A stretch of 57,147 nt of DNA, filler included, from Jimgerdemannia flammicorona (GCA_003990765.1; 3 parts of 3 records of this genome joined end to end with filler, not necessarily neighbours in it); one strand, 5' to 3'; numbered from the whole stretch's first letter, positions 13,238 to 49,860 are shown. Made by a program: numbers and translations. Notes: a model not told the origin generated them from the sequence alone.

Positions 13238-13275
13238 TCAGTCTCCACTAAAGGATAGTCTGTCCTCAGACTATC

Positions 13276-19091: not shown

Positions 19092-22000
19092 TTTTTTTTA
19101 TAGTCCCTTGGACTCTGTCTTTATTACCAGTCTATGAATAAGTATACAATATCACCACCCACTATCCGATCCCCATCGGGTGGCCCCACCCCACCTCATC
19201 ATGTATAAAGACTACCCTCTCACCAACAACTCCAACTCTCCCCCCACTCTGACCACACATTTTCACCACCAAGCAGTGCCTCCGACCCCCCTGCAGCCCC
19301 CAACCAAGCCACCAGCCTGTTAAGGTATCCTCCATAAGGAACTGCCACCTTACTAACTGGCTCCCCAAGCTCGCTCGCTTCTCCTTCTCAAATACAAATA
19401 GCCAGTGGCCAGCCAGCCCAACCCAAATAGCCAATGCCCAGCCTGGAGTAATCCACTCTTCCCCAACCCCTCCTATCAATTGATCCCTCAGGTCCTCCCA
19501 CCTCCCCCGTACATCATCACCCCTATGCCTTACCCCCAAGCAGTCCCCAATGGCCTGCCAAAAGTCTCCCAACACTTCACACTCCTCTAGCCAATGTTGT
19601 GGCATCTGTACCAATCCCCCTTCCTGCCTGACATTATGGCACTCCTCGCAGTCAAAGCAGCCCCCTACAACAAGGTGTCCTGAGCAGAAGTTAAGCATCA
19701 CATTCCTCCTTAGTATATGCCACCAGACTACCCAGTACTTTGGCAGCATCCAATTCTTCACTGCGGTACTCCAGGTCCAAACCCCATGCCAGTCCCACTC
19801 CTTACCAATTCCAACTCCTTGCCAACCACTAGGCCACAGATCCTGGCCTGGACCCCTTTGACATTCGATACCATCACTAATGTTGAACTCCAGTAAAGGC
19901 ATGCCTCCCAGAAGAATGCTATCCCATCTCCATATCACCGGGTCCCAAGCCCTCTCCCCCTCATCCTCTTGCCAGCAAATACCAATGCAGTGTGCCCCCT
20001 TGGCTCTCCCCCACCAGAAGCCTTTATATCTCAGTTGTGCAGTGTTCTGAAGCCCAACCAATGAAAGAAGATCACCAGTCAAGCCTCTAGGCGATGTCCA
20101 CCTCTCCCATATCTTCTGCAGTAGGGGGACCCAGCCCCCTCCATGCAACTCCACTGCCCTCCTCAGCCACCAAGCCCTCAAGCAGTGTAGTCGTTTGGAG
20201 AAGTCCACCAGCCCAAGAGCACCTCTCGCCACTGGTAGGGACAAAGTCTCCCAACCAATCTGACTCCATCTGTCAGCCCAAATCCATCTCTTGGCCACCT
20301 TCACCAATCTCTTCACTACCCAGGCTGGGAAGTCCAGATGATAGGCCAAATGCCACAGCTTCGGCAACCAGTATACATTCAAAATCAAGATCCTTCCTGC
20401 CAGAGAGAAGTGTCGACCCCTCCAATCCCGCAGGTCCTCCTCTCAAATTCCAATCCTCTGCTCCCACCACAGCCTGGGCAAAACAGACCCATAGACTGAC
20501 AAATAGATGTCCAAGTACCGCACTGCCTCTCCGGTGGGGACAATTGTTCCAATAACTTCTCTGCCCACCAAGCCATTGCCCAGCACCATTGTTTCGCACT
20601 TGTGCCAATTCAGCTTCACCCCAGAGTTCTCCTCATACCACTCCACTGTCTTCCGGAGCTCCTCGATATCTGCAGTCACTCCCAAACCAACCACCATGTC
20701 ATCTGCAAAGGCTCCAACCTTCCAGCCAATACCATAGATAGAGAGCCCCACAATCTTCCGCCGAATCCTGTCCATCAGAGGTTCCAAGGAAAGAGCATAC
20801 AAAATGGGGGACAGTGGGTCCCCCTGGGGCACTGCCCTACCCAGAGGGAAAGCCACCCCTCGATGCCCATTGCACATGAGCACAGCCCTACTCCTTTCCA
20901 GTAGGCTGACCATTGCTGACCAAAATGGGCCTGGAACTCCAATTCTATCTAATACTTTTGCCAGCCAGACTCGCCATACCCAGTCATAAGCCTTCTCCTG
21001 ATCCAAGAAGACAAGACACCCATCTAGTCCACAGGCTTGAGCACCTTCAATAACTCTATATACCCAGGCTGTGCCATCTCTAATAAGCCGACCTCCTATG
21101 AAGCCCCTCTGCTCAACACCCACAATTTGCTGAGCTACCTTCTGTAGCCTTGCGACCACCACCTTAGTCACCAACTTCCTGTCCATATCTAGCAACATTA
21201 TTGGCCACCAGTTCTTCCAATCCTCTCGCCTTCCCTTGTTCTTATAAAGCAGCATCACCAGCCCAAGGTCTTGCTCCCCCACCCATCTCCCTGACTGCAA
21301 TATAGAGTCACACAGTGCTGTCAACTCCCCCAATATGCCTGGGACTCCAACCATTCGCTTCCAGAAGTCCCAAGGGAGGCTATCCTCCCTAGGTGCCATA
21401 CCTGAGGCTGTCGCGGCAAGAACCTGGTGGATCTCTTCCTCCCTTACAGGCATCACCAGTTCACCTAGTCCCTAAGCTTGTGGTGGGTGCCAATCCTCTA
21501 ATGTTTGGTCAATGGCTGTAGCATCCACCCCACCCTCCTCCTCACTCCACAATCCACTCCATTGCACCTTCAGCGTTCCAAGGATGTTCTGTACACCATG
21601 CACTAGTACATCATCCAAGCCAAGTACCCCTTCCCACTGCTGCTGTATCCTTCTTGCTCAAAGTATCCTTGTGAGAAACTTGGAAGGCCTCTCCCCTTTA
21701 TCCAGCCCCTGCCAACGAAGCTGTGCCACCAGGCCTTGCACCTTTGACTCTTCCTCTTCCCACAGCACCTGTTGCAGTTCCCCAACCTCCATCTTCACCC
21801 TCGTCATTCTCCAATCCTCTTCTCCCTCCACTGCTGCCAGTCTCGCCCACTCCTCCAGGAGCCTAGCCAATCTAGTAGAAGCCCAATGCACTTTCTGCCT
21901 TCACTGCTTCCCAGCCACTCTGCCAGCCTCACTCCAATACATCCTGGCCATCTCTTTCAACCTCATCCACCGAACCCCAATCGCAGCCCCTTCCTGCTGC

Positions 22001-24930
22001 CAATTTGCCACCTCTAGCTGAATATCTTTCACCCACATCTCTCACCGGGCCTCATCATCCAACAAGGAGGAATTTAGGCACCAATGTCCAGACCCATCCC
22101 TACTTCCCCCAAAATACCCCTGTCCCAAGAGGCCCTAGTGATCTGACCACAGACACCATTCTACCTCTAACACCTTCCAAACATTGCAGCCCCAACAGTC
22201 GGCTGTCAGAATCCAGTCAATCCTTGTCCCTAGACCTCCAGCCCAATGCATATATACCCTCCTGTCCCCCCAGTGCTCCCTACCAGCATCCACCAGTGCT
22301 CCTAGCTGTTCAACCTCCTCCCATGTCGCCAACCCCCCACTCATGCTCTCCACACCCCATCCTCCATCAGTTCTATCCAGCTGTACATCCTGAACCATAT
22401 TGAAATCTCCTCCAAGCATATCCAACCCAGCTTCAGCAAGGATCCCACTCTCCAGGAGCCCTTTCACCCAATCCACATGCTCCCCCTGCACAGCAGGGCA
22501 GTAACAGGAGCCAATGGTGACCAGCTCCTACTCTGCATGAATCCACTCACCCCAGACCAGTCTCTCCCCCCAGCTCCTCACATCCTTTATCTCCCCTCTG
22601 CCTTTTCGAACCAGAATCCCAACCTTGCTGTTCCAAGTCGCCATACCACCCCATTCCTTAGTCCATTCCATCCTATCAGCATCATTCTTGTACCTGACAT
22701 CCTGTAAGAGGAAGAGATCAGCCTCCAATCCCTTCAACCAAGTAAAAATATTCCTGCATCGAACTGTGCCCCTCAGCCCATTCACGTTCAAAGAAAAAAT
22801 GTTAGTTATACTGTTCATAGTAAAATACGGTTTGTTCTCAATCAATCTCTACTGCTCCATGCCCCTCTCCTCCTACGCCGTGTCCAGATTATGTTCAGCC
22901 ATCACCTCCTCCTCTTCCACCCTCTGAGCCTCCAGTCCAGCCAACAGCTCATTCATCTCCTCATCAGTCTTCTCCTCAAACTCCTCTCGATACTTGATGC
23001 AAGCCTCCTGCCAAAGCTGCAACCCATGATGCCTGTTCCAACAGTACTCAGCCTTCTCCCCAGCAACCACCACCAACTCTACCTCCCTCTCCTTATCCAC
23101 CTCATACCCTTCCTCCTCCAGATATACCACGAGAATTTTCGCCTTTAGCGCCATCGCCACTCCTTCCCCCTGCAAAATTCTCATCCAGTGCTTGTCACCC
23201 ATCCCACACAAATCCACCTCCCCTAGCTCTTCTGCCACCAGGTTATTCATCATCCAGCATATCCAAAGTAGGTTCCCCACCTCCTTTCCACCAGGGGTTG
23301 CTGGCCTCCCTCCATCCAGCATTGTGGTGTCAGCTCCTGCACTCGCATCCTCATCCCATACCTCCGGGACATCCACCAGTTCCTCCTCCCCTGCCTCTAC
23401 TACTCAGTCCCCATCCAATACCTCTGGAATACTAAATTTTACCTGCTGGGTCCCCAGCATCATCACGTCCTCCCCAGACTTGTTCCTGGAAGCCAGGCCA
23501 TGCCTGATAAGAGGGGAAGGGGTGGGGGAGTTCTCCCAGACTTCATCCCAAACCTCCAAGGTGCCGTCAGCATATAGGTCGCTAATCTTCACCTCCTTAG
23601 CCTTCCCTGACTTTGCCCCCTTGTTCCCACTCCTCTCACCAGCCCAGACACTCGCTCCGGCCCCTTCTGCACCCATCTTCATGCTCGCATCCTTCTGTGG
23701 TCCACCCCCCAACTTAGCCAGCAGATCCTTCTGCCTCTTCTGCCCCTGAGCCCTTTCCCACTATACCTTGTCCACTTGAATCCTCTTTCCATCCACCACC
23801 TCCAGGAGTGTCGACTCCTTGAAAGTCTTCCAGGCCTTAGCTCGCCATTCCACAGCCCCATCCAGTTCCTCCAGCGCTTCCAATAAATCTTCCTCCTCTT
23901 CTTCACTTCCTTTCACCCATGTCACCTTGCACAGGAAAGCTCCCCAGACCAACACTGCAGGCCAGTCCCTTGTCTTCCTGGTAGCCTCTTTCCCAGCCAG
24001 CCGAATCCTCACATCCACATCCCCAGTCCTGAGTGTGGTCCCTTCCCAGACCCTGAATCTGATATCCACCACCTCTCCGTACTCCGCCATGACATCCTCC
24101 ACCCTCTTCCTCGTCTCCATCACCGTCACCATGGGTACACCTTTCACCAGCAGTTGGACCACCCTTGGATCCCATTTCAGACACCGCATCATTGGAACAC
24201 ATACCTCCCCCACCACCAACCCAACCTTCAGTGCCTCCTCCAGTGGTTTGACCTCCTCAAATCCCACCTCCACCCCCTCCAGTCCCTTCAGAAACTTTAC
24301 CGAAGCCGCTCCTGCCATCTGCTTAGCAATAAGCCCCAACACCATTTTTGCTATCACTGCTAAGCCCCGGAAGCACAGCGTGACTGCAAATGCCAAGATC
24401 GACTTCTTGAGTAATGGAGCCACCGCCAGTCCCGTTACACCATCTGCCAGGTCCCTGGGCCTCGTGCCCTTCCCACCGCTCAGCTCACCATCAGCAGTCC
24501 CATCTAGATTTTTTTCCAGATCACCCATCACACCCCCATCAGCAGTCTCCGCCCCAGCCACTACCCCCCCAGCTCCACTCCTATGGCCCTCTAGAGAGGT
24601 ACCCCCAAGAGGTTGCTGTCTGGAAGCCGCCACCGGTATCTTCCCCCCTCTCAGCCAGCTCTCCAGTCCAGCTCCCTGCCGACCCCCCTTCATCTTCTCC
24701 ACAAAGCTCACCCTGCCAGACCCTTGACCTCCAGCTCTGCCCTCTCCTCCACCATGGCCCCCCACCAGCAGGCCCCTCATGCTTCCCCCCAAGCTGGGGC
24801 CTCTCCCCACTTGTTGCCATTCAAATGCTCCAGGGCCACCCTGCCCAGTATGCACCTCCGGATGCTCGTTGGTCACCATGATACTAGTAGCTTTTCTCCA
24901 GAAACTGTGTCAAAAGTGTTGCCAAAGGGT
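19092..24930 (-). mobile_element. Near full-length L1/Tx1-clade LINE, disrupted (ORF1 about 24879-22873; ORF2 about 22818-19162)
   Basis: APE endonuclease motifs SLNVNGL, LLQD, GGDFN, RIDWI, SDH; RT motifs FLDQEKAYDWV, PQGDPLSP, FADD; LPVARGALGL; C-terminal CxxC..H. ORF1 has RRM-like YGEVVDI. T tract (poly(A) tail) abuts the gap. Confidence 0.93.
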
Positions 24931-24932
24931 TG

Positions 24933-26321
24933 TGTAACCTGAATGTTACCAGAGGGCCACACTCTTGATGCCCGCCATACTTATAATTAGCCAGGATACC
25001 AGACCAGGGTTATTTATCCATATTCTGAGGACACACCTGTGTCTGGTGGACACACTTATGTCTGGCAGACACACTCATGTCCTGCAGACACACTCATGTC
25101 CTGTGGACATATCTGTACCCAGAGGACACACCCAAACATTACCAGAAGTAGTAAATCTATAGTTAGCAACATAGTAACCAGATAGCAACCAACCTGTATA
25201 AATTACCCCAGAGACAAGAGTGAATAAACCTCAGTCTGAAATTGAATCCAAAAGTAAAAGATAAGTCTGCCTACCACACTTTGAGAGGAACTCTACAGCC
25301 ACTGTTAGGAGATTGTGAGCATTGGTCCCCTTTTCCACTCCAGTCCACTTTCCGATACAAAGCCTTGGTTTGCTTGCCAGATAAGCCTGAAGAGTCCAAG
25401 TTTGCCACCTAAGTTCAAGGAAGAACTTCACTAACTTTTGAAGAGAAACCTGCCGCTTAAGGAATAAGCCGCGCTATTGGTATGCTTGCCAGATAAGCCT
25501 GAAGAACCCAAGTTTCCGCCACCTAAGAGAAAGCTGCCAGTTTCTGACGCAACTTCACAGTGATCCGTCATGCAAACGAAGCCAGTCTTTAATGCAACTT
25601 TGCCAAGAGACCCTTTCCCAGTTAAAGCTGCCATTCCCAAGTTATCCGCATTCCCAGAAGCCCGCCGATTCAGAAAGAATCCGCGACGTCCGAGTTATCC
25701 AAGTTATCCAAGCTATCTGCGCCATCTGAGTTATCCAAGTTATCCAAGCTATCTGCGCCATCTGAGTTATCCAAGTTATCCAAGCTATCTGTGCCATCTG
25801 AGTTATCCAAGTTATCCAAGCTATCTGCGCCATCCGAGTTACTAGTTTGTTCCCAGTGAGCCCGATTCAGGAAGAATCTGCACCATCTGCCATTCCCAGA
25901 AGCATCCGCCGCCAGTATAATTCCCAGTGAACCCGCACCCAAATCGAGTCATCTGCCAAATCGCATAAGAAGTCCACCTGTGCTACACAGAGATCACCGC
26001 GCTACACAAGGAGATCGTCATGCAGAAATCGCATACTTTTGGAGATTGTCGCGCTACACACGAAATTCTACCAATTCCCAGTTGGCCCAAGAAGGAAACC
26101 CATTCACAAATTGCCGCTACACCCAGAGAACCGTCCTAATAAGGAAACCTGACGAAATCGACCATTGTATCCAGATTGACTATTATACCACTAAACACCA
26201 ACAAGGACCTTAGGAATCTTAGAACATTTTGTTGCTTTTTGACAAAGTAACTGGGGGCTCAAGCCAAACTACATCAACCCCCAACCTTGTAATTTGCCTC
26301 CATTGAGCCAGGCACGTTACA
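24933..26321 (+). mobile_element. LTR-like element (TGTAAC...GTTACA) related to the Gypsy 1 LTR, with internal repeats
   Basis: 6-bp inverted termini. agagtgaataaacctcagt, gattgtgagc and tgaagagaa..ctgc.gcttaaggaataag match the reverse complement of 12790-12965. No TSD found. Confidence 0.6.
25692..25841 (+). repeat. 36-bp minisatellite (4+ copies) built from 9-bp subunits
   Basis: gagttatccaagttatccaagctatctgcgccatct starts at 25692, 25728, 25764 and 25800. Confidence 0.95.
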
Positions 26322-27234
26322 ATATATTATGTAATTACCAAGATTTTGATATATAAAAAATTATTTTACTGATAAGATAAAAATAACAAAATTTATAAAG
26401 GATTTCTATTCTATATTTTATACTATTATTTTGAAAATATATAATAGAAATATAAATATATTTTAAATTATATTAATCAAATTTAGTTATTTTAGTAGCA
26501 ATTATGACCAATCTCATCTTACTGTCTACTATATTTAGTGGGTAGCCTGATTATAAGTGTAGTATAATTTAAAGTAGTCCAGAATATATTATAACTTTAG
26601 ACAATATCTATATAATACCAGAATGACTCTATAACTCTATGGAGATGTCTGTCAAATAAATTTATAAATTCAGAATTTGTAATTGATATTGAGCTGTAGA
26701 ATTATAAGCTATTGAAAGTTACTTTTAGTGCAGTTATTGGGTATACTGAAGCTCTATCACAGCCAATCCCAAAAATTAACACTCTTATAAAATTGAAATT
26801 TGATATATATTACTAATTTCTGCCCATTCTTAACAAATTGAAATTTGATTCATTTGACATTACTTCTCTTAACAAAATTGAATTTGATCTATGTTGAAAG
26901 TATTACCAAATTCTGCCCACTCTCAACAATATTCATAGCATTTTAAATTTCTGTTAGAGAATTATATTGATAGTGGACAGGGTCTTTTTTTTGAGAGTAG
27001 AGATATATCCTCTCAATAGAAATAGTCTGGGTCTTAAAAAAACAAACCAAAATATAGAAAATGTATAAATCATTAGTATTATTATGAATAAAATTTTTCA
27101 CTTCAGTCTTTAGAGTAATATTAGTCTTCTAGGATAAAATATCAGATCTGGCCTCATAAAATTTATATTATCAAATACACTCTGACCTTGAGAGTAACAC
27201 TAGATCAGATTTTGAAATTGTGCTATCAGGGCAA

Positions 27235-28844
27235 TAAATCAGTTATAGTTTATTTGATAATATCTTACTACTTAGATAACTATAGTAATTCTAGAGCTAA
27301 TATATACTAAAAATTCCAACTTCTAAAAGAGATATATTTATTAGATAAAAATCAATATAGGCAACCACTTCTCTGATAATTTATAATAACTTTTTAAATC
27401 ATATAACCTTGTACTAATGATGATTTATTCAAATATCTGCTCTATCAACTTTTAATATTAGATTAGAGACCTACTATGGTTTTTATAGATAATGAGAAAT
27501 TAGAGTTCAATTCTGAAGTGAGAGTCTGAGAACCAGCTACTACATTCAAAAAAGACAGCAGATATACAAATTACCCAATCTCAATATAGAGAGATAGTAA
27601 TAATAATAACAATAAAAGGCTCTTTCAGATCTTATAATTGAAATAAGTACAATTTACATATCTTAATAAGGAACAATTGGAGAATAAGTTTAATACCAGT
27701 AGTTATAATAATCTGGCTTCAAAAGTATGTATATATTAAAGTTGTTATAGGTAAAAAGCTTATAGTTGAATTTTAGATCTGGCTGAGTAGTCTGGCCTTT
27801 GGTCAGTACTACTTTCATTGGAGTTCACTTTCTGATGAGCTAGCATACTCTTTACTGGGTATGTTGGAAAATAAATAAAAAAATTAGAGAGTTTAAAACA
27901 GATATATGCTTGAATATATTAGTATGGAATAATGTAATAGAACTTTGGTTCTATTTTGTTAGTTTTTAGAACTTCTATAATGATTAATAGAAATAGTTAT
28001 AAATATTAGTATTTAATTATTAGAGGTAAAATTCTTAAAATTATAAAAGACTAACTTCAGCAAAAGTATTTACTAAGAATGTTTTCATTAATTAAGAATA
28101 AAAGTTAGAGAATCAAGGATAATCAAATACTATCATAGTCTTAATTATAAACTATACTAACTAGAGATCAAATATTATTATTTTTAGTAACTTGTTTAGC
28201 ATCTTAAGAGAAATTAATAGAAGAATACTACCAGAAGTGGAGCCTGCAGCTTAATTTGACTCAATATGGAAAAACTCATCAGATCTAGATATAGTAAGAA
28301 TTGATAGATTGAGAGCTCTTTTTTGATTTTATGAGTAGTGGTATATGGCTATTCTTAGTTAATAGAGTAATTTGCCTAATTACTTCTATTAATAAATAAG
28401 ACCTTAATCTACTTATTAGTCATCAACTTCTTAGAGAGACTATTGATATATAGTCAATGGAAGTTTGAGACAATAATAGATCTGTAATGCTCTTAGATGT
28501 TCTGGACTATATATATGCTACACTGATAAAGTTAGCAAGTTTATAACCTTGGCTAAAAGGTCTGGATAATCTTTTGAAACTTCATTATAGTAGAGATAAA
28601 TTATTACTCTTCAACAAGGAATTCTTAATAAGTATGAGTTATTAGCTTACATTGATTATATTCCTGCTCTTTGTATATATCACCTATTACTACTACTAAT
28701 TGAATAACTTAGTGAGTCTCTTGAATCAGTACCCAGAAGCTGGCAATAGCATTCAGATATTGAGAAGTTGGGCAAACTTAGTCATTTAGAGGAATTAAAA
28801 GTTGTAATAAGGTTTCTGTAGGTAAATCTGTAAAAGGATTATTA
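27235..28844 (+). pseudogene. 18S rRNA pseudogene (5'-truncated, hypermutated, internal deletions)
   Basis: Recognisable blocks taaatcagttatagtttatttgat, aattctagagctaata, gcttaatttgactcaa and gtcatttagaggaa; 3' end gtaataaggtttctgtaggtaaatctgtaaaaggattatta. Pervasive C>T/G>A changes. Confidence 0.93.
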
Positions 28845-29011
28845 AAAAATAGATATAGCCTATATATCCATCTTATGTATAAACAATAGAGAAAAAATAG
28901 AATATAGAGCACTTCTTCTTTAGAAGAGTATTGCCAACTTTTCTCTATATTTTTTTTTTTATAAATACTATCAAAATTTAAATAAAATTATTTTTAAATA
29001 AAAACTATTAT

Positions 29012-29167
29012 ACAACTTTCAACAATAGATCTCTTGGCTCTCACATCAGTAAAGAATGCAGCAAAATACAATACATAATGTAAATTGCAGAATTCAGTAA
29101 ATTATTGAATCTTTGAATACATATTGCACTCTCTGGTATTCCAGAGAGTACACCTGTTTCAGTATCA
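29012..29167 (+). pseudogene. 5.8S rRNA pseudogene
   Basis: acaactttcaacaatagatctcttggctc...ttgcagaattcagt...cctgtttcagtatca; all CpG sites are mutated. Confidence 0.93.
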
Positions 29168-29415
29168 AAATGACATCCAAAATTTGGTTTGTTTTGCTAA
29201 TCAGATAGTTCCAAATTATTGGGATTTGGGCTCTGCTGAATTTTTGTTTGGCTGACCTTAAATGATTTAGCCATATCATGAAAATTTTTGGGTGATAAGG
29301 CATAATATTTGGTACTCTTTCATATCTATCCCTTTTGCTGAAGTCTGTATATTTTGTGAAAAGTTGGCTCAATGATATAGAAAATTGAATAAATATAATT
29401 TTTTTCAACCATGGT

Positions 29416-30552
29416 TTAGATCTGAAATCAGGTGGGACTACCCGCTGAACTTAAGCATTTCAATAAGTGGAGGAAAAGAAACTAACAAGGATTCCCCTAG
29501 TAATGGCGAGTGAAGCGAGAAAAGTTCAAATTTAAAATCTGACAGATTATCCTGTCTGAGTTGTAGTTTCAAGAAGTGTTTTCGGTGCGTGTCTGAGTAT
29601 AAGTTCTTTGGGACAGGACATCATAGAGGGTGAGAATCCTGTTTATGACCCGGAACAGCGTACTATGTGATACGTTTTCTAAGAGTCAGGTTGTTTGGGA
29701 ATGCAGCCTAAAATGGGTGGTAAATTTCATCTAAAGCAAATATTGGCGAGACCGATAGCGAACAAGTACCATGAGGGAAAGATGAAAAGAACTTTGAAAA
29801 GAGAGTTAAACAGTACATGAAATTGTTGAAAGGGAAACTTTGAAATCAGTCGTGTGGGCGGGTAATCAGCTTGGCCTTTGGGTCTTGTGCACTTTCTCGT
29901 CTCGCAGGCCAGCGTCGGTTTTGTTTGCCGGATAAATGCCAAGGGAATGTAGCTCAACCTTTTACGAGGAGGGGTGTTATAGCCCTGGTAAATACGGCGG
30001 TCGAGACCGAGGTCTGCAGTCGATGCCTCTCGGGGCTGAGGACTCCATCGCTCATTCGCACCCGTGCCTAGACAGCTTGCTGACTAGGTGTGTGGTCTGT
30101 GGGTGACACGGTGGCCTACCACACATCGGCTTGGGTCGCTGGCATAATGGTTTTAAATGACCCGTCTTGAAACACGGACCAAGGAGTCTAACATATATGC
30201 GAGTGTTTGGGTGGCAAACCCATGCGCGTAATGAAAGTGAATGTAGGTGAGATCCTCACGGAGCATCATCTACCGATCTTGAAATTTTTGGATGGATTTG
30301 AGTAAGAGCATATCTGTTGGGACCCGAAAGATGGTGAACTATGCCTGAATAGGGTGAGCCAGAGGAAACCCTGGTGGAGGCTCGTCGCGATTCTGACATG
30401 CAAATCGATCATCAAATTTGGGTATAGGGGTGAAAGACTAATCGAACCATCTAGTAGCTGGTTCCTGCCGAAGTTTCCCTCAGGATAGCAGAAACTCGTG
30501 AGGTAAAGCAAATGATTGGGTTGTAAGCCTTAACCTATTCTCAAACTTTAAA
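29416..30552 (+). pseudogene. 28S rRNA 5' fragment (truncated after about 1.1 kb, lightly mutated)
   Basis: Intact ACCCGCTGAACTTAAGC (29440-29456), GACCCGTCTTGAAACACGG (30159-30177) and cgaagtttccctcaggatagc. Homology ends after cctattctcaaactttaaa. Confidence 0.93.
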
Positions 30553-30676
30553 AGCGAAAATCGGGGGTTCACACCGGTTTTTCCAATTTGAGAAGTCAGA
30601 CGTATATGAGCAGTCACGCTTCATATCCTTATAGCTCGGAAAAAGAATTGCTTGACCTTTACCTCTTCAACTCTAA

Positions 30677-31955
30677 ATGATCCCCCACCACCTTACTTCG
30701 CTGCAAGCACGCCTCCCGTCGCTCAAAAACCTGACAAATTCTGCATGCATCCAGCATCGCAAAGCCCGTTTCCCGGACCTCGACGGCACCCTTCAAATGC
30801 TCCTTACTCTACTTGGAGTCCCACAACTCGCGGGCTACATCGTTTGGATCTCACCCGACCGGTTCATAAACATCAGCTCTGTTCACGAAGGTGAATCCGC
30901 CAAGGTGTATAAAGGAACCATCGCTGCAGACATGGAGGATGCCGAGGAGTATTTGGCTCTCAAGGAATTGAATAGTAGAGAGGAGGTATGCCGTAAAAGC
31001 CAAAAAGCAGCCACTGTTACGTCATCAAATTGACCTCGCCATTTCAGCTCATGTCGCTGCTTTTTATTTCAAACTCGCCTCACACAGCTTATCATAAACG
31101 TCTGTCTCACCGCCCACGATGTAGGCTCCACCGTCCCCCTAATCGGTCTCTCTCAACATCCAACCACTAACAAATACTTGATGGTATTCGAGTTCGCTCC
31201 ACACGGCACCCTCGAAGCTACAATTTCCTCCGACTCCAATGACTGGCACCTCATCGCGCAGCTATCCTCCCGTCTTGCACACCGCCTAGCCGACCTTCAC
31301 GCGTTCGGCTATGCTCACCACGATCTCCACCCTGGAAATATCATGTACAAGACCCCACACCACCCGCTCCTAATCGATCTTGGCCTCTCCACGCCACTCA
31401 AAGAACCCGTCACCCAAACGGCCTACTGCGGCCGCCGTGAGTACCTCACGCCTGAGTTTTTCTTCAACGAACCACAAACGTCTGCAGAGGACGTATATTG
31501 CCTCGCCACCGTCCTCTGGCAATACACCACCGGCGTTCCACCGAAAGGCGATGCATCCAGAAAACACTGACGCATTGCGCGAGCGACTGATCCCTGATGC
31601 GCCGATGGAGTTTGCGTCTCTGCTCCGAGAGTGTTGGCAACCCGACCCCCATATGCGCCCATGTATGCAGCAGGTTTACGCACGGTTGGAGAAATGGCGG
31701 AAGTCGTTCAACGGAATTTCTATGCCGTTCTCGCTGCAGACGGAAGCATTTATTAAGGAACTTCGGGCGAAGCTTGATAGGGAGCCGGTGCCATGCGATT
31801 CATCATCGAGTTCCACGGAAGGAAGAGTGGTCGAATCCGCTGTTCCTTTGGATTTATCCGATGAGCTGAAGGGATGGAGCACAAATCGAGAAGCTGATGG
31901 CGAGTCAGTTGGAAGGAAATCCATATTTTCGGAAGAGAGAGCGTGGGTTTACTGA
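30677..31955 (+). CDS. Protein kinase (TKL-like fungal family); intron 30986-31087; frameshift near 31560
   Basis: EGESAKVYKG, ALKE, LMVFEFAPHGTL, HHDLHPGN, IDLG and EDVYCL. The subdomain XI segment LRECWQPDPHMRP is in a different frame. Confidence 0.8.
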
Positions 31956-32940
31956 ACACTTTATGACTGTTCCAACGTCCCCTGCACCTCTTTTTTTCCA
32001 TTTCGGTATGCGGGCTCACAAAGCATTCAGTCATTGTGTGCTAAACTAAGTCTAAAAAAACGTTCCATTCATTTAAGCTATCACTGTTGACAGCTGTCAC
32101 CATTGACAAATATACCCGGTTTTTTTTTTTTTTGACAATCAATTATGCCAGAAAGATTTATGCTGTAAATGAGTAATTCCAAAAACACTCACCCATTTAA
32201 GCTGTCAACTATTGACAATTATATGCCAGAAAGGTTATGTTGTAAATGAGTAACTTTAAGTATCGTGTTTTCTTCTTGCCCTTAAGGTGTATGTGTTCAA
32301 TTTTAATTTTCGTTTTGCTATCATCAATCGCAGTCCGTTTGTGATACAAATCACCTGACTCGTGAACCGATGCTCGCAACCTCCCTCCATCTACCTTTCT
32401 ACCTTGGAGCTTGAAGGATTCTTGGATCGAGTTGATTTTCAGTGTCGAAACAATTAGTCGAGGACAGACAGCTACAAGAAATTTTGTGGCTGGGGTCATC
32501 TCACTGTAACGGAGGACGGGCTTGACGCGCTAGGCTTAAGATGCTACAAGCCGTCTCAATACATCAGAAACCCTTTTAAAATTGGCTCCAAAGGCAGAGG
32601 CCTCGCTGATTTGTCTTTTTAGTGCCCTCCGAGCTTCCTTACATCCATTGAAACTTCAATGAGTTGGGTTTTGGAGTGGGTCGGATAGGGCCCATGGTAT
32701 GGGTGTAGAACCATCAACACAACAAGAACGCTTGGGAGAACGTATGAGGAATGAAAAACTGGCGACGTGGAACGCACATTTGAAATATCATCCACGATAC
32801 ACTTCCAACTGTCATACAAAAGAGGAATAGCAGAAAAAGGTGGCTCGAAAGCCTGGCTGTCTATTATATGCAACCCAAGTACAAGTAAGGGAAAACTCGG
32901 TCCACCGTCACCGTACAGAACCTTTCCCTCTTTAAGCTCC

Positions 32941-34279
32941 TCATCCAAACCTCGCAACCCTCCTCCTCCTCATCTCCTCGACACTAACATCTTCCTCCGC
33001 CTCTTTCCCCTCCCGTTCCACCACCTTCGCCTTCCCCTTTCGGTCATCCTCCCTCTTTCTCTTTCCGTCGCTCACTTCTTCTTCACCCGCGATGGTCCCC
33101 GCCTCTCTAATACTAGCCTCGATTGCTGCGTGCCCAATCGTCGTCCTCCAGCCCCGCGATCGGCTGCTCAGGCGTTCCCGAAAGAGTGTATCCTTGCCCG
33201 GCAAGGGTGTTCGACGCGCGCGATTTGGGAGGGGGTGGGAGCGTCGCGGCTAGGTCGTCGGCTGGGCTCGTGGGTGACGTACCCCGGATTACAAAGATTG
33301 AGTAGCCTTGAAAGAATGAGGGAAAGGAAGGTGTTTGACAATGGGTGAAAATCGACGGTAACGGTTACCGACAGATGCTGGAAAAGAATGAAGATAAATG
33401 TACCCTCAGACTCAATCTGGCGCAGCATCATGCCGAGGTAAGTCTCGCTGATCCACTCGGCACCATCGAGCATTGAATTGAGGTTGTACCAGCGCGAGGG
33501 GAGTGCGAAGCGGCGAAGCGTATACCAATGCTCTTGGAGGTTGCAGATGAAGGCGAGCTCGTCTCTGGGGTGTTGGGTGACGGGAGAATGAATACTTGCA
33601 AATAGCGCTTCATAAGTGACTAGCGGGCGAGTCAAAAAGTAAGGAAACTTACTGTGGACGGTCGCGCGCTTCGATGGCGGTTTCGGCACCGAGGGGGGTC
33701 GCTTCTGTATATATGTGTGACGATCAATGGTGACTGTTGATCAAGCACGCGGATCAACTGACCAAGGCCCATATTTTTAAAGCGTTTTGCATTACCTGTG
33801 GTGGTGTGCGAGGGCGAAATCGGACTGGTGGGTACGGTGGACCCTATGCATTGACGTCAACGTGATAATGGCGTATAAACCACAAGGTGAAAACCTGGAT
33901 TGAGAAGAACCCGGAGTCGTCGTAGTTGGCGCTCTCCCTCGGCTGTTCCCTTGGGGCGACAACGTCCTGCTCGTCCTCGTCGAGCTTGCCGGCGATCTCG
34001 GCGAGGTCGACGGCGGTAAAGTAGGGACCTTTGTGGAGGAAAGTTGTGTGGGAGATCGAACATCGTGTACGGGCTGCCGTTCGCCAAACGAAAGACAGGA
34101 CACGACGGTGAGGTTCTTACCTTGCAGCAGGGCGTTGAGGGCATGCTGGAGGCATAGGTTGCCTTCTTGCTGTGTATTATGTGGACATGCGAGTGTTATA
34201 TGGTAGTGCCAGGTTTGTTCCAAAAGTGATAGAAACTTGGTATACCTTTTCAAAGGTGGATGTGGGGAACGAGATCCAT
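32941..34279 (-). CDS. Ataxin-3 / Josephin-domain deubiquitinase with UIM-like tail; multi-exon, apparent frameshifts
   Basis: MDLVPHI; QEGNLCLQHALNALLQG; NYDDSGFFSIQ; AFICNLQEHWYTLRRF..WYNLNS; AAIEASIRE; EEMRRRRVARFG. Confidence 0.88.
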
Positions 34280-34635
34280 AGTGTGGTTTGTTTGTCAAGT
34301 TGAGGGTTCCACCGCTTGTATGTCACCTTTGAGTGCTCGCTAACAGGCCGATTTAAAGCGATCGCCATTTTGGGGTCATTCTTACTAACCTTAAGTTCAA
34401 GGCTCGCCGCCACGGGATTGCCAGGTATGATTGTAATCGATTAAAAAATATATATCATTTAATTAAATTGTGATTAACCTAGACTGAACCAGACCAAACT
34501 AGCTCATCCAGAGCTACAATTTTAATGTTATTACTATTTTTACTTAGCTTTGGCGGCTATAAATTACAGAAATCAGTGTATATTGTATATAATTTATTCA
34601 TATAAATTTATATCAAACAGCTAAAAAAATCAAAT

Positions 34636-34705
34636 CCGAGCATAGCTCAGTTGGTAGAGCGGAAGACTGTAGTGTTAAACTGTCATAGTTCGAATCTGGT
34701 TGCTC
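34636..34705 (+). pseudogene. tRNA-Tyr(GTA) pseudogene
   Basis: ccgagcatagctcagttggtagagcggaagactgtag (D arm and GTA anticodon) and gttcgaatctggttgctc (T arm and partial acceptor) are present. The 3' strand of the anticodon stem is missing. Confidence 0.7.
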
Positions 34706-35161
34706 TTTTCCGCGATTTTCTCTCTCTCACGTGATTCACAACGGAATAAACTTTATTCATTTCGTGGGAAGTTAATACGTACAAGGAATGTCAATTCATC
34801 GCTTTCGCAACGATAATGCTCTCCAAAAGGGATGGTTGCTAGCTAAGACCGCCGTGCCTTCGTCTATGACATTTTTAAAAGCATAAGTCTCGGCATAATA
34901 TTGAGTGGTCAAACCGTCATAACGACGTGATTAGTTAGTTTCAACAAACGTCCTGGCGGGGTTCGAATTTAAGGTTTGCATGCGAGACTGTTCACCAAAA
35001 AACGCCACAAGATCCAATTTTGGAGGCAAAAAAAACCTGTTTGTGTGATTTATGGTCGCTGTACATAATGAAATCTCCGTCGGCTGTGTAAAGTGTATTG
35101 CGTCGGTGGTGTCCACAATTAAAACATACAAAAAGAAAAGAAAGTGCAATGAAAGTAGAAT

Positions 35162-36547
35162 TTACAATTCGGAAAGCAAAGCCACCAGATGCGGTGGCGG
35201 AACAGGCGGCCCTCCGCGCTGCTCAATATTTCCACCCACATGCTGCAGCGGAACCGACGACGATCCGTGCCTCTCAATGTCCCATTCTTCGTTATTGGTG
35301 CCCTCAGGTCTCGCCCCGCCACGGTGCTCTGGGTCAGAGAATTCGTCGTCGATCGCCCACCCGGCGAAATCCTTATCCTCGTTCCCGGGCTTGTCCTCTC
35401 CCAGGCTTCGGATATTGTCCTTTAACCCTTTGCCAAAGTTGCGCATCACCACGACGGTGTACCCAATGTTGAGGAACGAGTCGATAACGCCGCAGACCAT
35501 CAGGACCCCCCAGGTTACGGACATATTGTTGACGCTGAAAATCAGCCCAAAGTTGACCGCAATCCCGACATTCAAAAAAATGTAAGCAATGAGCGGCCAT
35601 CGCATCTCCCGCCGCGCCGCGGTCCCAATCGTTGCGAACGCCAGCAGGTTCAATGCCGTGATCACTATGTGGAATATGGATTGACCCAAGCTGATGCCCG
35701 CGAAATTCGACTGCACGAGAATGCCCAAGAATACCGCCTCAAAGCGTATTTGGAACAAGGGCGACAGTTTCAGAAATACGAGGAAGAACTGGTACTGTCG
35801 GTACATTGTCTGTGTCGTCAGGTCGGCTCCGATGCGACGGTAGATGTTCCACCCGAACTGCTGGTACAGCTTCCACACGACGAACGCCGACGCGCCCGCG
35901 AAGGCCAACCCGAAGGCAAACTCCACCGTCGCGTAGTTTCGCTGGTATACGAGATGGTATACAGGCAAATAAATCCCGTATGCCTCGCGGAAGTAGTCCA
36001 AGTTCCGGTACCACAGCACCGCGTCGTAAAACTGCGACAACGTGAACGCCAGACAGAGTACCTGCACGGCGAGGTAGGCAAAAAGCTGGATGGAGTTTTG
36101 ATGCAGGATGGCGTCGACGGCGAAGATGAACATCATGAAAACGAAGACGATGAAGAAGATGGTGTGCAGCGCCCGCGTCTGGAAGTTCAACCCGGCTCGG
36201 GCTAGTGGGTCGTCGCCGGCGCTGATTATGTGCGAGGCGTTGATGGTCGCGAGCCACGATGCTTCCCCGAAAGTATCGTTGTCCATGATGCGGATGGCCT
36301 CGAACTCTAACACGTTGTCGCAGTAGATGGCCATTTCTAGCCCGCACGTCAAGAGCAAGTAAAGGAGCGCGAGGAGCGGGAGTGCAATGGTCCAGCGAGA
36401 TTCTGTGAGCCGCGACCTGGATACGCGGAGGAAGTTGACGGCGCGCAGTTCGGGAGGTGTGGCGGTGGTGGGAGGGGGAGTAGCCATGGTAATGGGGGTA
36501 TAGTGAACAGCACTGGGAGTGGTAGGTGCCGCAGCAGGGTGGAACAT
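35162..36547 (-). CDS. Multi-pass membrane protein, UPF0658 Golgi membrane protein-like
   Basis: 461-aa ORF with several hydrophobic segments and the family-like motifs DAILHQNSIQL, WKLYQQFGWNIYRRIGADL..MYRQYQFFLVFLKL and NFGKGLK. Confidence 0.8.
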   Translation of the reverse strand: MFHPAAAPTTPSAVHYTPITMATPPPTTATPPELRAVNFLRVSRSRLTESRWTIALPLLALLYLLLTCGLEMAIYCDNVLEFEAIRIMDNDTFGEASWLATINASHIISAGDDPLARAGLNFQTRALHTIFFIVFVFMMFIFAVDAILHQNSIQLFAYLAVQVLCLAFTLSQFYDAVLWYRNLDYFREAYGIYLPVYHLVYQRNYATVEFAFGLAFAGASAFVVWKLYQQFGWNIYRRIGADLTTQTMYRQYQFFLVFLKLSPLFQIRFEAVFLGILVQSNFAGISLGQSIFHIVITALNLLAFATIGTAARREMRWPLIAYIFLNVGIAVNFGLIFSVNNMSVTWGVLMVCGVIDSFLNIGYTVVVMRNFGKGLKDNIRSLGEDKPGNEDKDFAGWAIDDEFSDPEHRGGARPEGTNNEEWDIERHGSSSVPLQHVGGNIEQRGGPPVPPPHLVALLSEL

Positions 36548-36765
36548 GGGATGCAGAACTCTTCAGAGAGAGGGGGGCCACGAGGGGATTTAAGTGTACG
36601 ATTTTCCGACGCTAGTCTGCCTCAGATGGGCGGACTAACCTCCAGGCCCGTGTTACCTGATAAGGATGGCGATATGTCCGTTAAAGGAGGGTAGACGGGT
36701 GTTTGCCGAATATTAACATTCGTGGCTGTCGGTTTATTTTGGTGTAACTGGATTCTATTTTCCCT

Positions 36766-38019
36766 CTAACAGGTTCTCCCCCTCCTCCGCCTCCCGCCCT
36801 CATTCTCCAAACCCCTCCTGAACAGCGCCAAATCGACCATCCCCCCGCTCTCCTCCTTCCCCCAAACACCCAACGCTCTCAACCTTAAATCGACCCCGTC
36901 CACAATCACGATTAGCCACCCGACCCACCGCGCGCCGATCTCCCTCGACTGCCACGCCAGAAATTGATACGCCCTGCGTCCCGCCACACCATCGAACCGC
37001 TCACGCGCGCGTCGCACGCCAAAGCAATGTCGCTCGATTGCGTTATCTACGCTAGAAACGTAGTTGCGCCACGAGACATAGGTAATAAATATTGCAAGGA
37101 GGACGTCAAGCGTATAGTGGAAACGCGTAAAGATGATTAGGAGCGGCGAGAGCATAGGCTATCCAGGAATAGATTAGGCGGAGGCGGGAGTGGAGACGCC
37201 AGGTGATTACGCATGACATGAGGACGCAGGTGTGGCCCGAGAAAATGTTGTTTGTGCAGTTATTGTTTACCTGGGGGTTGTTGAGGCGGTGGGGTGGTGA
37301 GATAATGCCCTCGCGGAAGGTTCCGAAACGACGAAAAACACTCAAGAATCTTTCCTCTCAGAACAGAAAAGACACCTCTCATAATAAAAATAAAAAAAAG
37401 AAACCTACCCCCAACACCTCCAACAGCATCATATACATGAGCCTTTCTCCAACGGACCCGTCCAGCACGACCCTGTTAGGCGTACACCCTTGCGGTAATG
37501 GGCTTGGCAACGTTGTAACCACCAAAGCCACCCCATCAGGAAGCACCACCTCCTGAACGTAATGAACCGCACCTCCCAGTCAGGACTGAACAGCACGAAC
37601 ATTACCGCTGTGTACAGTAACGTCGCCATCAGCCATACGCAGGTGCGTTGTGTCACGCCCGTAACTTGCGTAGCGGAGATCGGAGATTTGTTCAAGTGTG
37701 AACTCAGAAGAATCAAGAGACAGAAGCAGAGGAGGACACGGAGGAAAGAGTGATTGGCAACTAGGTAGAACAGGTCGCGCGGGTGATGAATGTGTGAGGG
37801 AGGGATCAGGCAGAGGTTGAGTACATACCAATACATTGTTTTGCATGTGCGTAGGGTGTAATTTGTGTGGGAGAGGGAGTCGCGCCGTGCGTGTGAGTTG
37901 GGTGGGTAGAGGAGCCGTTGGAGGGTGGTTAGTGGGTAGGAGGTTGGAGTAGTTGTCTGGGTGAAAGCTGGGTTCTGTGGCGCATGGGATTTATCAGTGT
38001 TAATACGTGAGTCGTGCAA
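36766..38019 (-). CDS. Sphingomyelin/inositolphosphoceramide synthase-like PAP2_C protein; introns, apparent frameshifts, 5' end uncertain
   Basis: TTLPSP, CTNNIFSGHT and TRFHYTLDVLLA (catalytic H..H..D arrangement) are distributed over adjacent frames. Confidence 0.75.
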
Positions 38020-38071
38020 TTTTCTGATTTTCTGTCTGGAACGCCTCCTCCTCCTCCCCCCCCCCCCCCCC

Positions 38072-38171
38072 NNNNNNNNNNNNNNNNNNNNNNNNNNNNN
38101 NNNNNNNNNNNNNNNTTAATTAATTAANNNNNNNNNNNNNNNNNNNNNNNNNNNNNNNNNNNNNNNNNNNN
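38072..38171. other. Assembly gap with TTAATTAATTAA spacer
   Basis: Same N-run and spacer as 18992-19091. Confidence 0.97.
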
Positions 38172-38189
38172 AAAAAAAAAAAAAAAAAA

Positions 38190-44300: not shown

Positions 44301-44426
44301 TCATTACTCATCTCATATGCCATATAATCTTCTTGTGCTCTGATCTGGTGGCTTGCAAGAAAAGACTGTCTCCTATGCTGATGTCATCATTCTGAGGTCA
44401 CTGTTATAATATATATTTACATTACA
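38370..44426 (-). mobile_element. Second Ty3/Gypsy element with dUTPase (LTR-PBS-gag-PR-dUTPase-RT-RH-partial IN)
   Basis: PBS-like TGGTGCCC follows the LTR end at 42928; gag YPPTFYG; degenerate knuckle YFRCREKGHYVKNC; PR IIDTGA; dUTPase GIDL/TRSSLA/GVIDPDYTG/RISQ/RGE*GFGSTG; RT PFGICNTPASFQ and YIDD; RH LQTDVS and TDHSAL; IN start IDIIGPLP. Confidence 0.93.
42928..44426 (-). repeat. Putative 1.5-kb 5' LTR of Gypsy 2 containing an ORF remnant and three ~31-bp repeats
   Basis: Minus strand reads TGTAAT...ATGACA. TATATAAATA and AATAAA lie near 43125-43160; the acactg.ataatgccagca repeats lie at about 43260-43350. The outer boundary is inferred. Confidence 0.5.
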
Positions 44427-45129
44427 TCAGAGTATATTAAGTGTAATATTTCTCTACTCATATATAGATAATAATATCACTCTAATAATATTCTATATTC
44501 TAATAATAGTAGTATCTAATATGATCTTATCTATAGTATTGAGGTCCTGTTTATAGCCAACATAACTATTTTATTCTAACTGTATGACTTCTATAGTACT
44601 GTTATCTTTAAGGAGAGCTCAGATACTATAGTCATTATACTCACAATAGATAATAAGCTCATTAAGATCTGGGATCAGTAGATGGAGCAGTTTTGTAAAG
44701 ATTAAGCAGTCAGATATCTCTTTTTATAATACTAGTTTAGCTTTTTGCTAGGCTCTACTGGCCTCTTAACTCTGCTTTATAGTACTGCTAGTACAGTATT
44801 ATAGTATAAAGTCAGGGTATCTATAGGATCCAAATCTGTACTAGAATCTGACTACTTGAAGCTACTTTTTACAGTAGGTTATTGGGCTACAAATTTTGTA
44901 TACTTCCTCTAATCTAGACTTCTATACTAACTGGTAGCTTGGAGTTACCCCTTACTGCTGACAAAGGGTTATAAACTTTGCATACTCTCTTCACCAACTC
45001 TGGCCAATCTTTATTTTACTTGAGTTGCTCAGAGTTACTTCTTATAGCTAATAGAGGGCTGCAAACTCTGGTATACTCCCTCTGCCTACTATCTTATACC
45101 TCAAACTAAACTCTTTTTTTTTTTTTATA

Positions 45130-46266
45130 TACTTCTAATTATATTATATAAAAAATAATTTATTTCTGACTTATATTTAATACAGCAGAACTCACTCAAT
45201 TTTAGCAGCCTATACTCTATCAAGACTTAAGATATATATAAGTCTAGATTGCCTCAGTATTCAGTATATATCTCTTAGGAGAAATAAGATCTATTCTATT
45301 AGAAAACATCTGCTTAACTAGAGTACTGGTAACAGGAATGACTAGGTAGTCCTGAGCTATACTATATAAGTTGGAGAAGTCTGTTTGATATATCTGTAGC
45401 CATATGCTCTAGGGGTAGAATATGGTTAAAATTGGTCTAATTCTAGCAGAAAGACAATTCATCTTCTACTAATTGAGTATCTCTATACCCTCTAGTAGGA
45501 TTATATAGTTGCTGATAAGATAAATAGTAAGTTTGTCTATTGATAATAGTTCTTTTACTGATGGCTCTTTCTTTCTCTTTCTACTAAAGTAAATATGTAA
45601 TAGAAAAGATTCTTTAGTATATTCATCTAGACTTTAGCTGGAATCTTACAGCAGTATATAGTTTTTCTGATATGTTTTAATTATAACTTACTTGGCTTCC
45701 TTAATATAGTATGTAATACTTCTAGCTTTAATCTTTATGATACATATTATAGCTTTAAATATAGATTCAATACTATTTAAAAAAGAGAATAAGTTTTGTA
45801 GAGAGTTTCTCTTTTTTTTAAAGGAATAACTGTTATATTAACATACTAGTACTGATTAGGTATATAGTGATATCTGTTTTGAAGTAGTATTTTCTAAGCT
45901 TACTTAAAGTAATCTCTACAGTATCTCTTTAATCTGAGCTAAACTAGAAATCATTGCTACTCTCTAGCCTATCCTTGAGCTTATCTTTTAGTTGATCAAT
46001 TAAAAGATTATATGTATATTGATATTACTGAGCTTATTGTTGAGGTAGTTTGTTTGACTATATATTTTATATAATCACCAAAATACTAGTAGTTAAGAAT
46101 AGTGAATTGTTACATTATTATACAGAGATAGATAAAATGAATATAGAGTTAAAGAATTATCACTTACTTTCAAAACTCTGATAATATTTCTTAATATATC
46201 CTACTTACTTTTATCTATAGTTTCACCTTATATTTTCTTATCAGTAGTAATTGTAGAATTTATTAG

Positions 46267-46298
<32 letters not shown>

Positions 46299-47790: not shown

Positions 47791-47822
<32 letters not shown>

Positions 47823-48913: not shown

Positions 48914-49860
<947 letters not shown>

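Follow-up and report, generated by a model that had tools for sequence, protein, structure and literature searches.

A dead rDNA unit in Jimgerdemannia flammicorona records bounded C>T hypermutation beyond CpG with its own sequence-context rule

Can cytosines well beyond CpG be mutated en masse, and within sharp limits, in a fungus outside the Dikarya? This question is raised by a copy of the ribosomal DNA (rDNA) unit at positions 27177-30552 of a 57,147-nt stretch of Jimgerdemannia flammicorona DNA (the whole of which we call the window), from an ectomycorrhizal, non-Dikarya fungus of the Endogonales (Mucoromycotina). A sequence-only reading had described a dispersed rDNA copy with a steep gradient of mutation resembling repeat-induced point mutation (RIP); it had also proposed that a C>T mutator of broad context, directed at repeats or heterochromatin, fades out next to a gene. 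The locus offers an inferable ancestor and, in its 28S part, an internal control of the same background age, and with these we observed, in a member of the Mucoromycotina, C>T hypermutation that has clear bounds and is not limited to CpG: about four in ten C and G letters have turned into T and A across a stretch of ~3 kb, according to the rule CpG > CpA = CpC >> CpT with a preference for a pyrimidine at position +2. It belongs with the cytosine hypermutation associated with repeats or heterochromatin, for which neither this lineage nor this context rule had been described.

A partial, disabled rDNA unit between a retroelement and a kinase gene

The window consists of three contigs (1-18991, 19092-38071 and 38172-57147), and the joins across the linkers between them do not represent genomic adjacency; given how the window was built, all three are taken to come from a single genome. 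The entire rDNA locus lies in the middle contig, which is made up as follows (ITS, internal transcribed spacer; LINE, long interspersed nuclear element).

18992-19091 and 38072-38171: artificial linkers, each of 44 N, a 12-base all-frame stop spacer and 44 N
19092..38071, no strand: middle contig containing the entire rDNA locus, delimited by the linker positions
19162..25000, minus strand: LINE-like retroelement left of the locus (Pfam RVT_1, E=2.8e-27, on 20443-21471, minus)
26317..27176, no strand: CpG-free, AT-rich stretch to the left of the 18S, with which the hypermutated core begins (860 bases, GC 23%)
27177..28844, plus strand: 18S rRNA pseudogene (Rfam RF01960, whole model 1-1831, 615 bits)
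28845..29013, plus strand: ITS1, between the Rfam matches to small subunit (SSU) rRNA and 5.8S (GC 18%, no CpG)
29014..29167, plus strand: 5.8S rRNA pseudogene, a transition zone (Rfam RF00002, 126 bits vs 169-170 in outgroups)
29168..29440, plus strand: ITS2, a CpG-decay shoulder (GC 31%, no CpG, strong CA+TG excess)
29441..30552, plus strand: 5' fragment of 28S rRNA, lightly mutated and essentially at CpG (Rfam RF02543, model positions 24 to ~1070 of 3401)
30677..31955, plus strand: protein kinase gene of at least two exons (open reading frame starting with M, with a glycine-loop-like motif; Pfam Pkinase, E=2.3e-17, on 31034-31570)

The Rfam matches to SSU, 5.8S and large subunit (LSU) rRNA are collinear on the plus strand and follow the natural order 18S-ITS1-5.8S-ITS2-28S (5' third), in agreement with the earlier description of a dispersed rDNA copy, and no further rRNA match was found with Rfam in the whole window. 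The LSU match covers 29441-30461 at standard thresholds and reaches ~30552 (model position ~1070) at looser ones. The unit is flanked by the LINE-like element on its left and by the kinase gene on its right, the ATG of which, at 30677, follows the 28S remnant after 125 bases. It also carries disabling lesions. Intact outgroup SSUs score 1813-1825 bits, whereas the 18S copy reaches 615 bits; it has a GC content of 27% vs 44% in an outgroup 18S, lacks 56 bases near 28206 within a universally conserved stretch (in comparison with five of the five outgroups covering the site) and has a mutated 3' end. Towards its 3' end the 28S fragment has two internal, helix-breaking deletions, and it covers about the first third of a 28S before unique DNA begins; given these lesions, and the loss at CpG reported below, it had been too generously described as nearly intact. 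The locus is a dead, partial rDNA unit (an orphon) among ordinary genes and transposons of J. flammicorona.

On the left, the hypermutated core extends beyond the 18S. The last CpGs on this side are at 26159 and 26315, GC content falls from 45% to 20% over 26000-26400, and the cytosines that remain in the flank (26317-27176) have the profile CG 0, CA.39, CC.14, CT.46. This flank, which may be a hypermutated 5' external spacer or an older relic, had no similarity to the remainder of the window in sensitive blastn and tblastx searches.

Direction, context and limits of the substitutions

Ancestral bases were inferred from seven Mucoromycota-like metagenome rDNA contigs, found by means of a degenerate 5.8S pattern and aligned with MAFFT; a column was taken as ancestral where at least three outgroups were present and all agreed. 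An exact 30-base D1 stretch of the window gave 0 matches in the metagenome scan, and the seven loci found with the degenerate pattern are all distant, none of them being conspecific. The polarised regions are 18S, 5.8S and 28S, the last of these up to 30452-30552, which is without outgroup coverage. In the 18S, 316 of the 1322 outgroup-invariant columns had changed, and 244 of these 316 changes are C>T or G>A: C>T at 97 of the 237 invariant C and G>A at 147 of the 335 invariant G, alongside 16 reverse transitions (A>G 7, T>C 9) and 56 transversions. When each outgroup was left out in turn as a control, no C>T excess was seen in any of the seven (e.g. 10 vs 36, 16 vs 35, 32 vs 29); the same measure for the window was 281 vs 38. 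The 18S therefore shows the near-exclusive C:G>T:A spectrum expected of RIP, with a balanced outgroup control. The non-CpG transitions on both strands that had been noticed from the sequence alone are thus real, and at both of the examples given for them (28815-28833 and 27298-27306) the window has T or A at positions for which every outgroup covering them has C or G. The absence of CpG before 29443 was likewise confirmed, since between 26315 and 29443 there is none, compared with 53.6 expected from base composition (3,126 bases); GC content is 19-31% in 200-base steps over 26400-29399.

When substitutions were tabulated by context, with strands collapsed and 18S and 5.8S pooled, CpG had changed at 80/101 sites (79%), CpA at 64/141 (45%), CpC at 56/121 (46%) and CpT at 15/134 (11%), so that CpT stands apart from CpA (p=2e-10) while CpC does not (p=0.9). 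The base 5' of the cytosine was without effect (0.40-0.45 for all four). A pyrimidine at +2, on the other hand, raised the rate: CAY and CCY triplets had changed at 71 of 111 sites (CAC 22/28, CAT 14/23, CCT 21/33, CCC 14/27) vs 41 of 115 for CAR and CCR (CAA 12/35, CAG 9/27, CCA 14/32, CCG 6/21; p=3e-5). With H standing for A, C or T, CHG had changed at 17/75 sites vs 107/272 for CHH, but the rule is one of purine vs pyrimidine rather than a clean CHG/CHH split, because CAA is hit as rarely as CAG. Within CpG, TCG was the least affected class (18/26, vs ACG 25/27, GCG 21/27 and CCG 16/21). Both strands were hit alike in the core, and every scorable CpG dyad of the 18S had been lost (TA 29, CA 12, TG 5, other 2, CG 0); the 60% of double-hit dyads fit a first hit at CpG followed by a CpA-type hit on the opposite strand. 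What had been called a broad context does reach well beyond CpG, in changes that are overwhelmingly C>T and G>A, but it is not simply broad: it is ordered by the 3' neighbour and by the base after it.

We then looked at position. Loss at CpA in seven 225-base bins of the 18S was 10/18, 8/20, 8/17, 8/14, 10/19, 12/26 and 9/16; it was 5/20 in the bin around the 5.8S and 0/12, 0/19, 0/10, 0/18 and 0/13 in the 28S bins. Loss at CpA and CpC is thus ~50% in each of the seven 18S bins, ~25% (CpA) in the 5.8S and ~0 from 29441 on, a plateau followed by a step in place of the steep gradient that had been proposed. Loss at CpG is complete up to 29442, after which the 28S bins lost 4/12, 1/8, 0/0, 0/10 and 3/12. 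The 5.8S is intermediate, with changes at 7/11 CpG, 5/19 CpA, 0/3 CpC and 0/10 CpT, all six scorable CpG dyads lost (CA 3, TG 2, TA 1) and non-CpG loss below the 18S level, and a (CA+TG)/(AC+GT) ratio of 1.77 in 29000-29499 has the look of pure CpG decay. In the 28S part, 8 of 38 CpG cytosines and 2 of 160 other C/G had changed (outgroup-invariant columns), its CpG dyads read CG 12, TG 5 and CA 3, and the transitions are spread along its length. Transitions are therefore essentially confined to CpG in this shoulder and far from confined to it in the core: non-CpG loss was 135/396 in 18S and 5.8S vs 2/160 in 28S (p=6e-21), and CpG loss 80/101 vs 8/38 (p=4e-10). From left to right, the plateau gives way to a shoulder of ~0.5 kb, this to a 28S with light CpG decay, and that in turn to a gene in which CpG is normal (kinase gene observed/expected (o/e) CpG 0.83-1.08). 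The hypermutated core spans ~26.3-29.2 kb, or ~3 kb, and ends ~1.2-1.5 kb upstream of the kinase ATG. Hence the process does fade, as had been suggested, within ~0.5 kb and sparing the 28S piece and the kinase gene, but it does so as a step.

Is the core simply older? Of the sites that were ancestrally A or T, 27/597 had changed in 18S bins 2-7 and 22/371 in those of the 28S. Poor alignment at the 5' end was the reason for excluding the first 18S bin, with 25/124, from this comparison. In background age the two parts therefore look equal, and the extra divergence of the 18S is cytosine-specific and not the result of greater age. In this, the rDNA copy does serve as the natural reporter of a mutation spectrum that the sequence-only reading took it to be, with an inferred ancestor from which the spectrum can be read.

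The rest of the window and possible origins of the core

Our best account of these data superimposes two processes. The first would be ordinary methylation-type decay of CpG to TpG and CpA, which would also have stripped CpG from other repeats of the window and would have reached the 28S piece weakly. The second would be a far more intense C>T process, confined to the ~3 kb core (~26.3-29.2 kb) and acting on both strands equally, to which we would ascribe the loss of every CpG, of about half of the CpA and CpC cytosines and of only about a tenth of the CpT cytosines. It would be RIP-like in outcome, with a specificity unlike that of Neurospora RIP, and its putative agent would be an activity of the DNA-methyltransferase type, as susceptibility depends on the base 3' of the cytosine and is indifferent to the one 5' of it. 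Such a combination points to recognition of the DNA-methyltransferase type, not to an APOBEC-type deaminase. The boundary of the core might be set by the open promoter chromatin of the kinase gene or by the end of a segment duplicated elsewhere. We give about even credence to such a locally targeted, enzyme-driven cytosine mutator acting on top of CpG-methylation decay.

The argument for enzymatic action comes from rates. Per-site losses calculated from the counts are at least ~1.5 for CpG, ~0.6 for CpA and CpC and ~0.12 for CpT in the core, and 0.24 for CpG and 0.0125 for other C/G in the 28S (a ratio of ~19). Methylated CpG usually mutates 10-20 fold above other sites, and the 28S ratio is that of ordinary CpG methylation. 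The core values are ~50 to >100 times the local baseline, and those of CpA and CpC also exceed the rate at neighbouring 28S CpG; because of this, an enzyme-driven local process is favoured over purely passive decay of 5-methylcytosine (5mC), through which such rates would probably be hard to reach.

The remainder of the window bears on both processes. Of the 29 1-kb bins in gene regions, 27 have a CpG o/e of 0.77-1.51, compared with 0.00-0.04 in the 1-kb bins of 13001-19000 and 39001-47000, and (CA+TG)/(AC+GT) is 1.3-1.6 over 14001-19000 and 38001-44000. This is the combination expected of 5mC decay, with CpG-poor repeats showing an excess of TpG and CpA and genes having normal CpG. Two further features lie on the third contig.

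44000..48600, no strand: second AT-rich, CpG-free block, on another contig than the rDNA locus (GC 26%, composite RIP index +0.11)
51794-55359, minus strand: multi-exon gene for nitrite reductase [NAD(P)H], one exon of which matches a J. flammicorona protein

The cytosines remaining in the 44.0-48.6 kb block have the profile CG 0, CA.32, CC.12, CT.56, vs 0/.31/.12/.56 in the 18S copy. Given this match, and the other repeats that were spared, the intense process is therefore not unique to rDNA, yet it misses some repeats. The block showed no similarity to the remainder of the window beyond short AT-rich matches (sensitive blastn, tblastx); self-BLAST found no large repeats, and there is no second example with a known ancestor within the window. 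Among the outgroup contigs, one (L007) was considered as a second orphon and rejected, as Rfam recognises a normal LSU in it as far as model position 1355, reached where the contig ends, with an insertion beyond position 1551, and MAFFT had misaligned its tail. The segment in question is L007:1552-2086. Resemblance to the window's 28S is lost after 1551 although the LSU model goes on aligning, so that a conserved LSU site seems to be interrupted by an insertion, possibly an intron.

The nitrite reductase gene supports the assignment of the host, which had been guessed to be a non-Dikarya fungus and is J. flammicorona: its 354-residue exon (51797-52858, minus strand) is 100% identical to a J. 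flammicorona NCBI protein, the next matches, at 55-60%, coming from Mortierellomycotina, Glomeromycotina and Mucoromycotina. As for the transposons, a Gypsy-type retrotransposon remnant at 38928-40965 (minus strand), with reverse transcriptase/RNase H and a dUTPase domain, is CpG-free at a GC content of ~40% and shows CpG decay only. The coding strand of the LINE-like element is extremely skewed in composition (G 38.7%, C 15.2%, A 23.5%, T 22.6%) and has long open frames with products rich in tryptophan, glycine, arginine, valine and glutamate; this skew could be the family's native composition or could reflect a strand-specific process such as sense-strand A>G. A stretch of 213 bases is common to 12821-13025 and 25156-25367, on the first and second contigs, in inverted orientation at 76% identity, and probably represents a dispersed repeat family.

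Several points weigh against a local enzymatic mutator, or against the precision with which it can be argued. The repeat stretches at 13.0-19.0 kb and 38.2-44.0 kb are CpG-free with GC 37-40% and lack a non-CpG footprint, and the LINE-like element adjoining the locus (19162-25000) keeps a GC content of 53% and a CpG o/e of 0.21-0.33, again without hypermutation beyond CpG, so that the intense process does not reach every repeat and these data do not support the earlier idea of repeats as such being the target. If homology to the rDNA array guided the mutator, it should have hit the 28S piece, which was spared. Strand-coordinated runs of C>T or G>A were not found (119 vs 114.7 +/- 5.9 in context-preserving shuffles), which leaves no sign of processive events on single strands, although saturation might conceal them. 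As the baseline rate comes from 2/160 sites, the rate ratio is imprecise and the comparison of rates an argument, not a proof. The outgroups are distant, with 70-72% identity to the mutated 18S and 77-86% to the 28S part, and the ITS regions could not be polarised. Finally, a published k-mer screen scores J. flammicorona as 'no_rip', reporting enrichment in non-coding DNA for 23 k-mers and in repeats for 0 (PMC12543289).

Passive decay alone is the main alternative. The core would then be a densely methylated heterochromatin island with 5mC at CG and at non-CG (CHH-type) sites, subject to long spontaneous deamination, and the 28S would have been less methylated beside an active promoter. We consider this rather unlikely, though it has much in its favour within the window: the repeats are CpG-free and the genes are not, which is the classic footprint of methylation, CHG is hit less than CHH, events are not clustered by strand, and the graded order core > 5.8S/ITS2 > 28S > gene resembles a profile of methylation density. 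A relative within the Mucoromycotina, Phycomyces, moreover has transposon 5mC enriched in CG and CHH, not CHG, and encodes DIM2 and DNMT1 (PMC11258239). With core CpA and CpC at ~0.6, however, as opposed to 0.24 for CpG and 0.0125 for other sites in the 28S, this account would call for non-CG methylation that is all but complete, or for a mutability of 5mC relative to C far above the 10-20 fold given above. Nor does it readily explain why the +2 effect separates purine from pyrimidine, with CAA close to CAG and no clean CHG/CHH split, or why other CpG-free repeats show no comparable non-CpG loss; and CpT, the context tabulated as preferred by DIM-2 in a review (PMC13297926), is the one spared here. 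It is improbable, in turn, that the locus is a mosaic of two ages, in which everything to the right of ~29.2-29.4 kb, the 28S end of an old decayed orphon, would have been replaced at a later time by ectopic gene conversion from the functional rDNA or by a second insertion; the contrast would then be one of age and would not mark how far a mutator reaches. The mutation load does change abruptly, within ~0.5 kb, rDNA is a plentiful donor for conversion, and the flat plateau of the core could be that of a discrete old segment; but divergence at A/T sites and by transversion is the same in both parts, whereas an older 18S should show more. The unit is also perfectly collinear with spacers of normal length, the 5.8S and ITS2 are intermediate (CpG gone, non-CpG partly hit) and fall cleanly into neither class, and the 28S piece is itself decayed, at 8/38 of its CpG cytosines and through its two deletions.

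Canonical homology-dependent RIP, in which a premeiotic scan would have recognised the core as a stretch with a second copy elsewhere in the genome, seems to us very improbable. RIP in Neurospora treats a duplicated segment in just this way, with sharp block ends, a flat plateau and ~0.5 kb of 'leakage', and the 18S divergence of 24% (316/1322) is near the level at which RIP stops recognising copies. The indices that had been proposed as a check give a qualified answer: TpA/ApT, which RIP should raise, is 1.16 in the window 18S vs 0.97 in one outgroup 18S, (CpA+TpG)/(ApC+GpT), which it should lower, is 0.99 vs 1.10, and the composite index is +0.17 vs -0.13 (+0.15 to +0.20 in the core), positive but weak against the threshold of composite >0 used in PMC11105155. 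What is missing is the preference for CpA, which is hit no more often than CpC and less than CpG. The whole length of the rDNA homology was not affected, since the 28S piece, homologous to the rDNA array, was spared (2/160 non-CpG), and neither was the adjoining LINE-like element, in a genome reported to contain 73% repeats. A RID-type enzyme is reported for Glomeromycotina, and arbuscular mycorrhizal fungi keep RID, but other Mucoromycota clades have lost RID and DNMT5, in a passage that does not name Endogonales (PMC8298701); RIP itself is described as observed only in Dikarya (PMC11105155) and as restricted to ascomycetes in a 2025 screen (PMC12543289). Last, an artefact of assembly, either a decayed relic mis-joined to reads of functional rDNA or an AT-rich 18S that is a working, divergent rRNA gene, is hardly credible. 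The assembly Jimfl_AD_1 is certainly highly fragmented (231 Mb in 35,354 contigs with an N50 of 10,860, GC 42.8%, 73% repeats; PMC12543289), rDNA is a classic site of collapse, and no public run containing the stretch was found among the 12 listed (soil, root, air and unspecified metagenomes, word shares 0.05-0.07). Against this, the 28S is truncated at ~1070 and continues into the unique DNA of the kinase, it has two helix-breaking deletions, and CpG transitions have struck invariant positions along its length. The load shifts stepwise through 18S, 5.8S, ITS2 and 28S rather than at a single place; an 18S that lacks 56 bases of the universal core, has a mutated 3' end and scores 615 vs ~1820 bits cannot be functional.

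Should the enzymatic account be right, it is possible, and we say this tentatively, that Endogonales have evolved or retained an active local C>T mutator for genome defence outside the Dikarya, one that acts on C before G, A or C but not T and prefers a pyrimidine at +2. Mutagenic genome defence would then be older, or more often reinvented, in fungi than an 'ascomycete-only' view allows, AT-rich relic blocks would have been missed by standard RIP indices and k-mer screens, and this orphon would be the first site-resolved footprint of the process. Such relics may escape composition-based screens since the composite index is only ~+0.2 and AT-rich 4-mers are enriched in non-coding DNA, not in annotated repeats: for TATA in J. 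flammicorona the enrichment is 4.0-fold in non-coding DNA, as against 0.76 in annotated repeats/transposons (PMC12543289). The signature can be looked for in this genome of 231 Mb and 73% repeats, as well as in further early-diverging fungi, and could be compared with their DNA-methyltransferase (DNMT) repertoires. There is also a practical consequence for rDNA counts. The public J. flammicorona genome is reported to contain only one 28S, with a depth-based rDNA copy number of 2 (bioRxiv 10.1101/2020.05.14.095489); if that single 28S is this pseudogene, the estimate is not one of functional rDNA and needs revisiting. Literature on Jimgerdemannia together with RIP yielded incidental mentions only and no study of such hypermutation, and PMC10538959 does not mention Jimgerdemannia.

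Comparison with known systems

The locus resembles RIP in Neurospora crassa and other Pezizomycotina in its massive, near-pure C:G>T:A change on both strands, in forming a discrete block with sharp ends and short leakage, in the control of susceptibility by the 3' neighbour of C, and in being an AT-rich relic beside intact genes. In such fungi, rDNA displaced from the nucleolus organiser is itself subject to RIP. Unlike RIP, which prefers CpA (PMC12543289), the core here follows CpG > CpA = CpC >> CpT, its composite index is weak, the homologous 28S and the neighbouring retroelement are spared, and the host belongs to the Mucoromycotina. Neither the CpT preference of DIM-2 (PMC13297926) nor the CpA preference of RIP (PMC12543289) matches the core rule. 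This context rule, unlike that of known RIP, is thus found in a species scored as 'no_rip' by the 2025 kingdom-wide screen, which holds RIP-like signatures to be unique to ascomycetes (PMC12543289).

Decay through CpG methylation, as in Basidiomycota and in Phycomyces blakesleeanus, which has 5mC, is resembled by the window as a whole, in which genes keep CpG and repeats lose it with an excess of CA and TG, and by the CpG-only 28S shoulder; Phycomyces, a relative within the Mucoromycotina, methylates repeats in CG and CHH (PMC11258239). The core departs from it, with 135/396 non-CpG C/G mutated, a GC content of 19-31% and rates above those of neighbouring CpGs, and a simple CHG/CHH methylation rule does not produce CpA = CpC >> CpT with a pyrimidine preference at +2.

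Two further cases lie outside the Ascomycota. Transposons of Microbotryum and rust fungi reportedly undergo hypermutation of the TpCpG type, said to have been described by Hood in 2005. That process shares with ours a repeat-associated C>T change outside Ascomycota in which CpG is favoured; at our locus there is no preference for a 5' T (TCG being the lowest class, a weak test where CpG loss is saturated) and there are many non-CpG hits. In Zoophthora radicans (Entomophthorales), 24.2% of the genome is RIP-positive by the composite index, in a report that describes RIP as observed only in Dikarya (PMC11105155). Both that report and our analysis concern RIP-like, AT-rich DNA in a non-Dikarya lineage, but where the former relies on composition indices, the J. 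flammicorona locus has an inferable ancestor, so that the direction, the context and the spatial limits of change were measured site by site.

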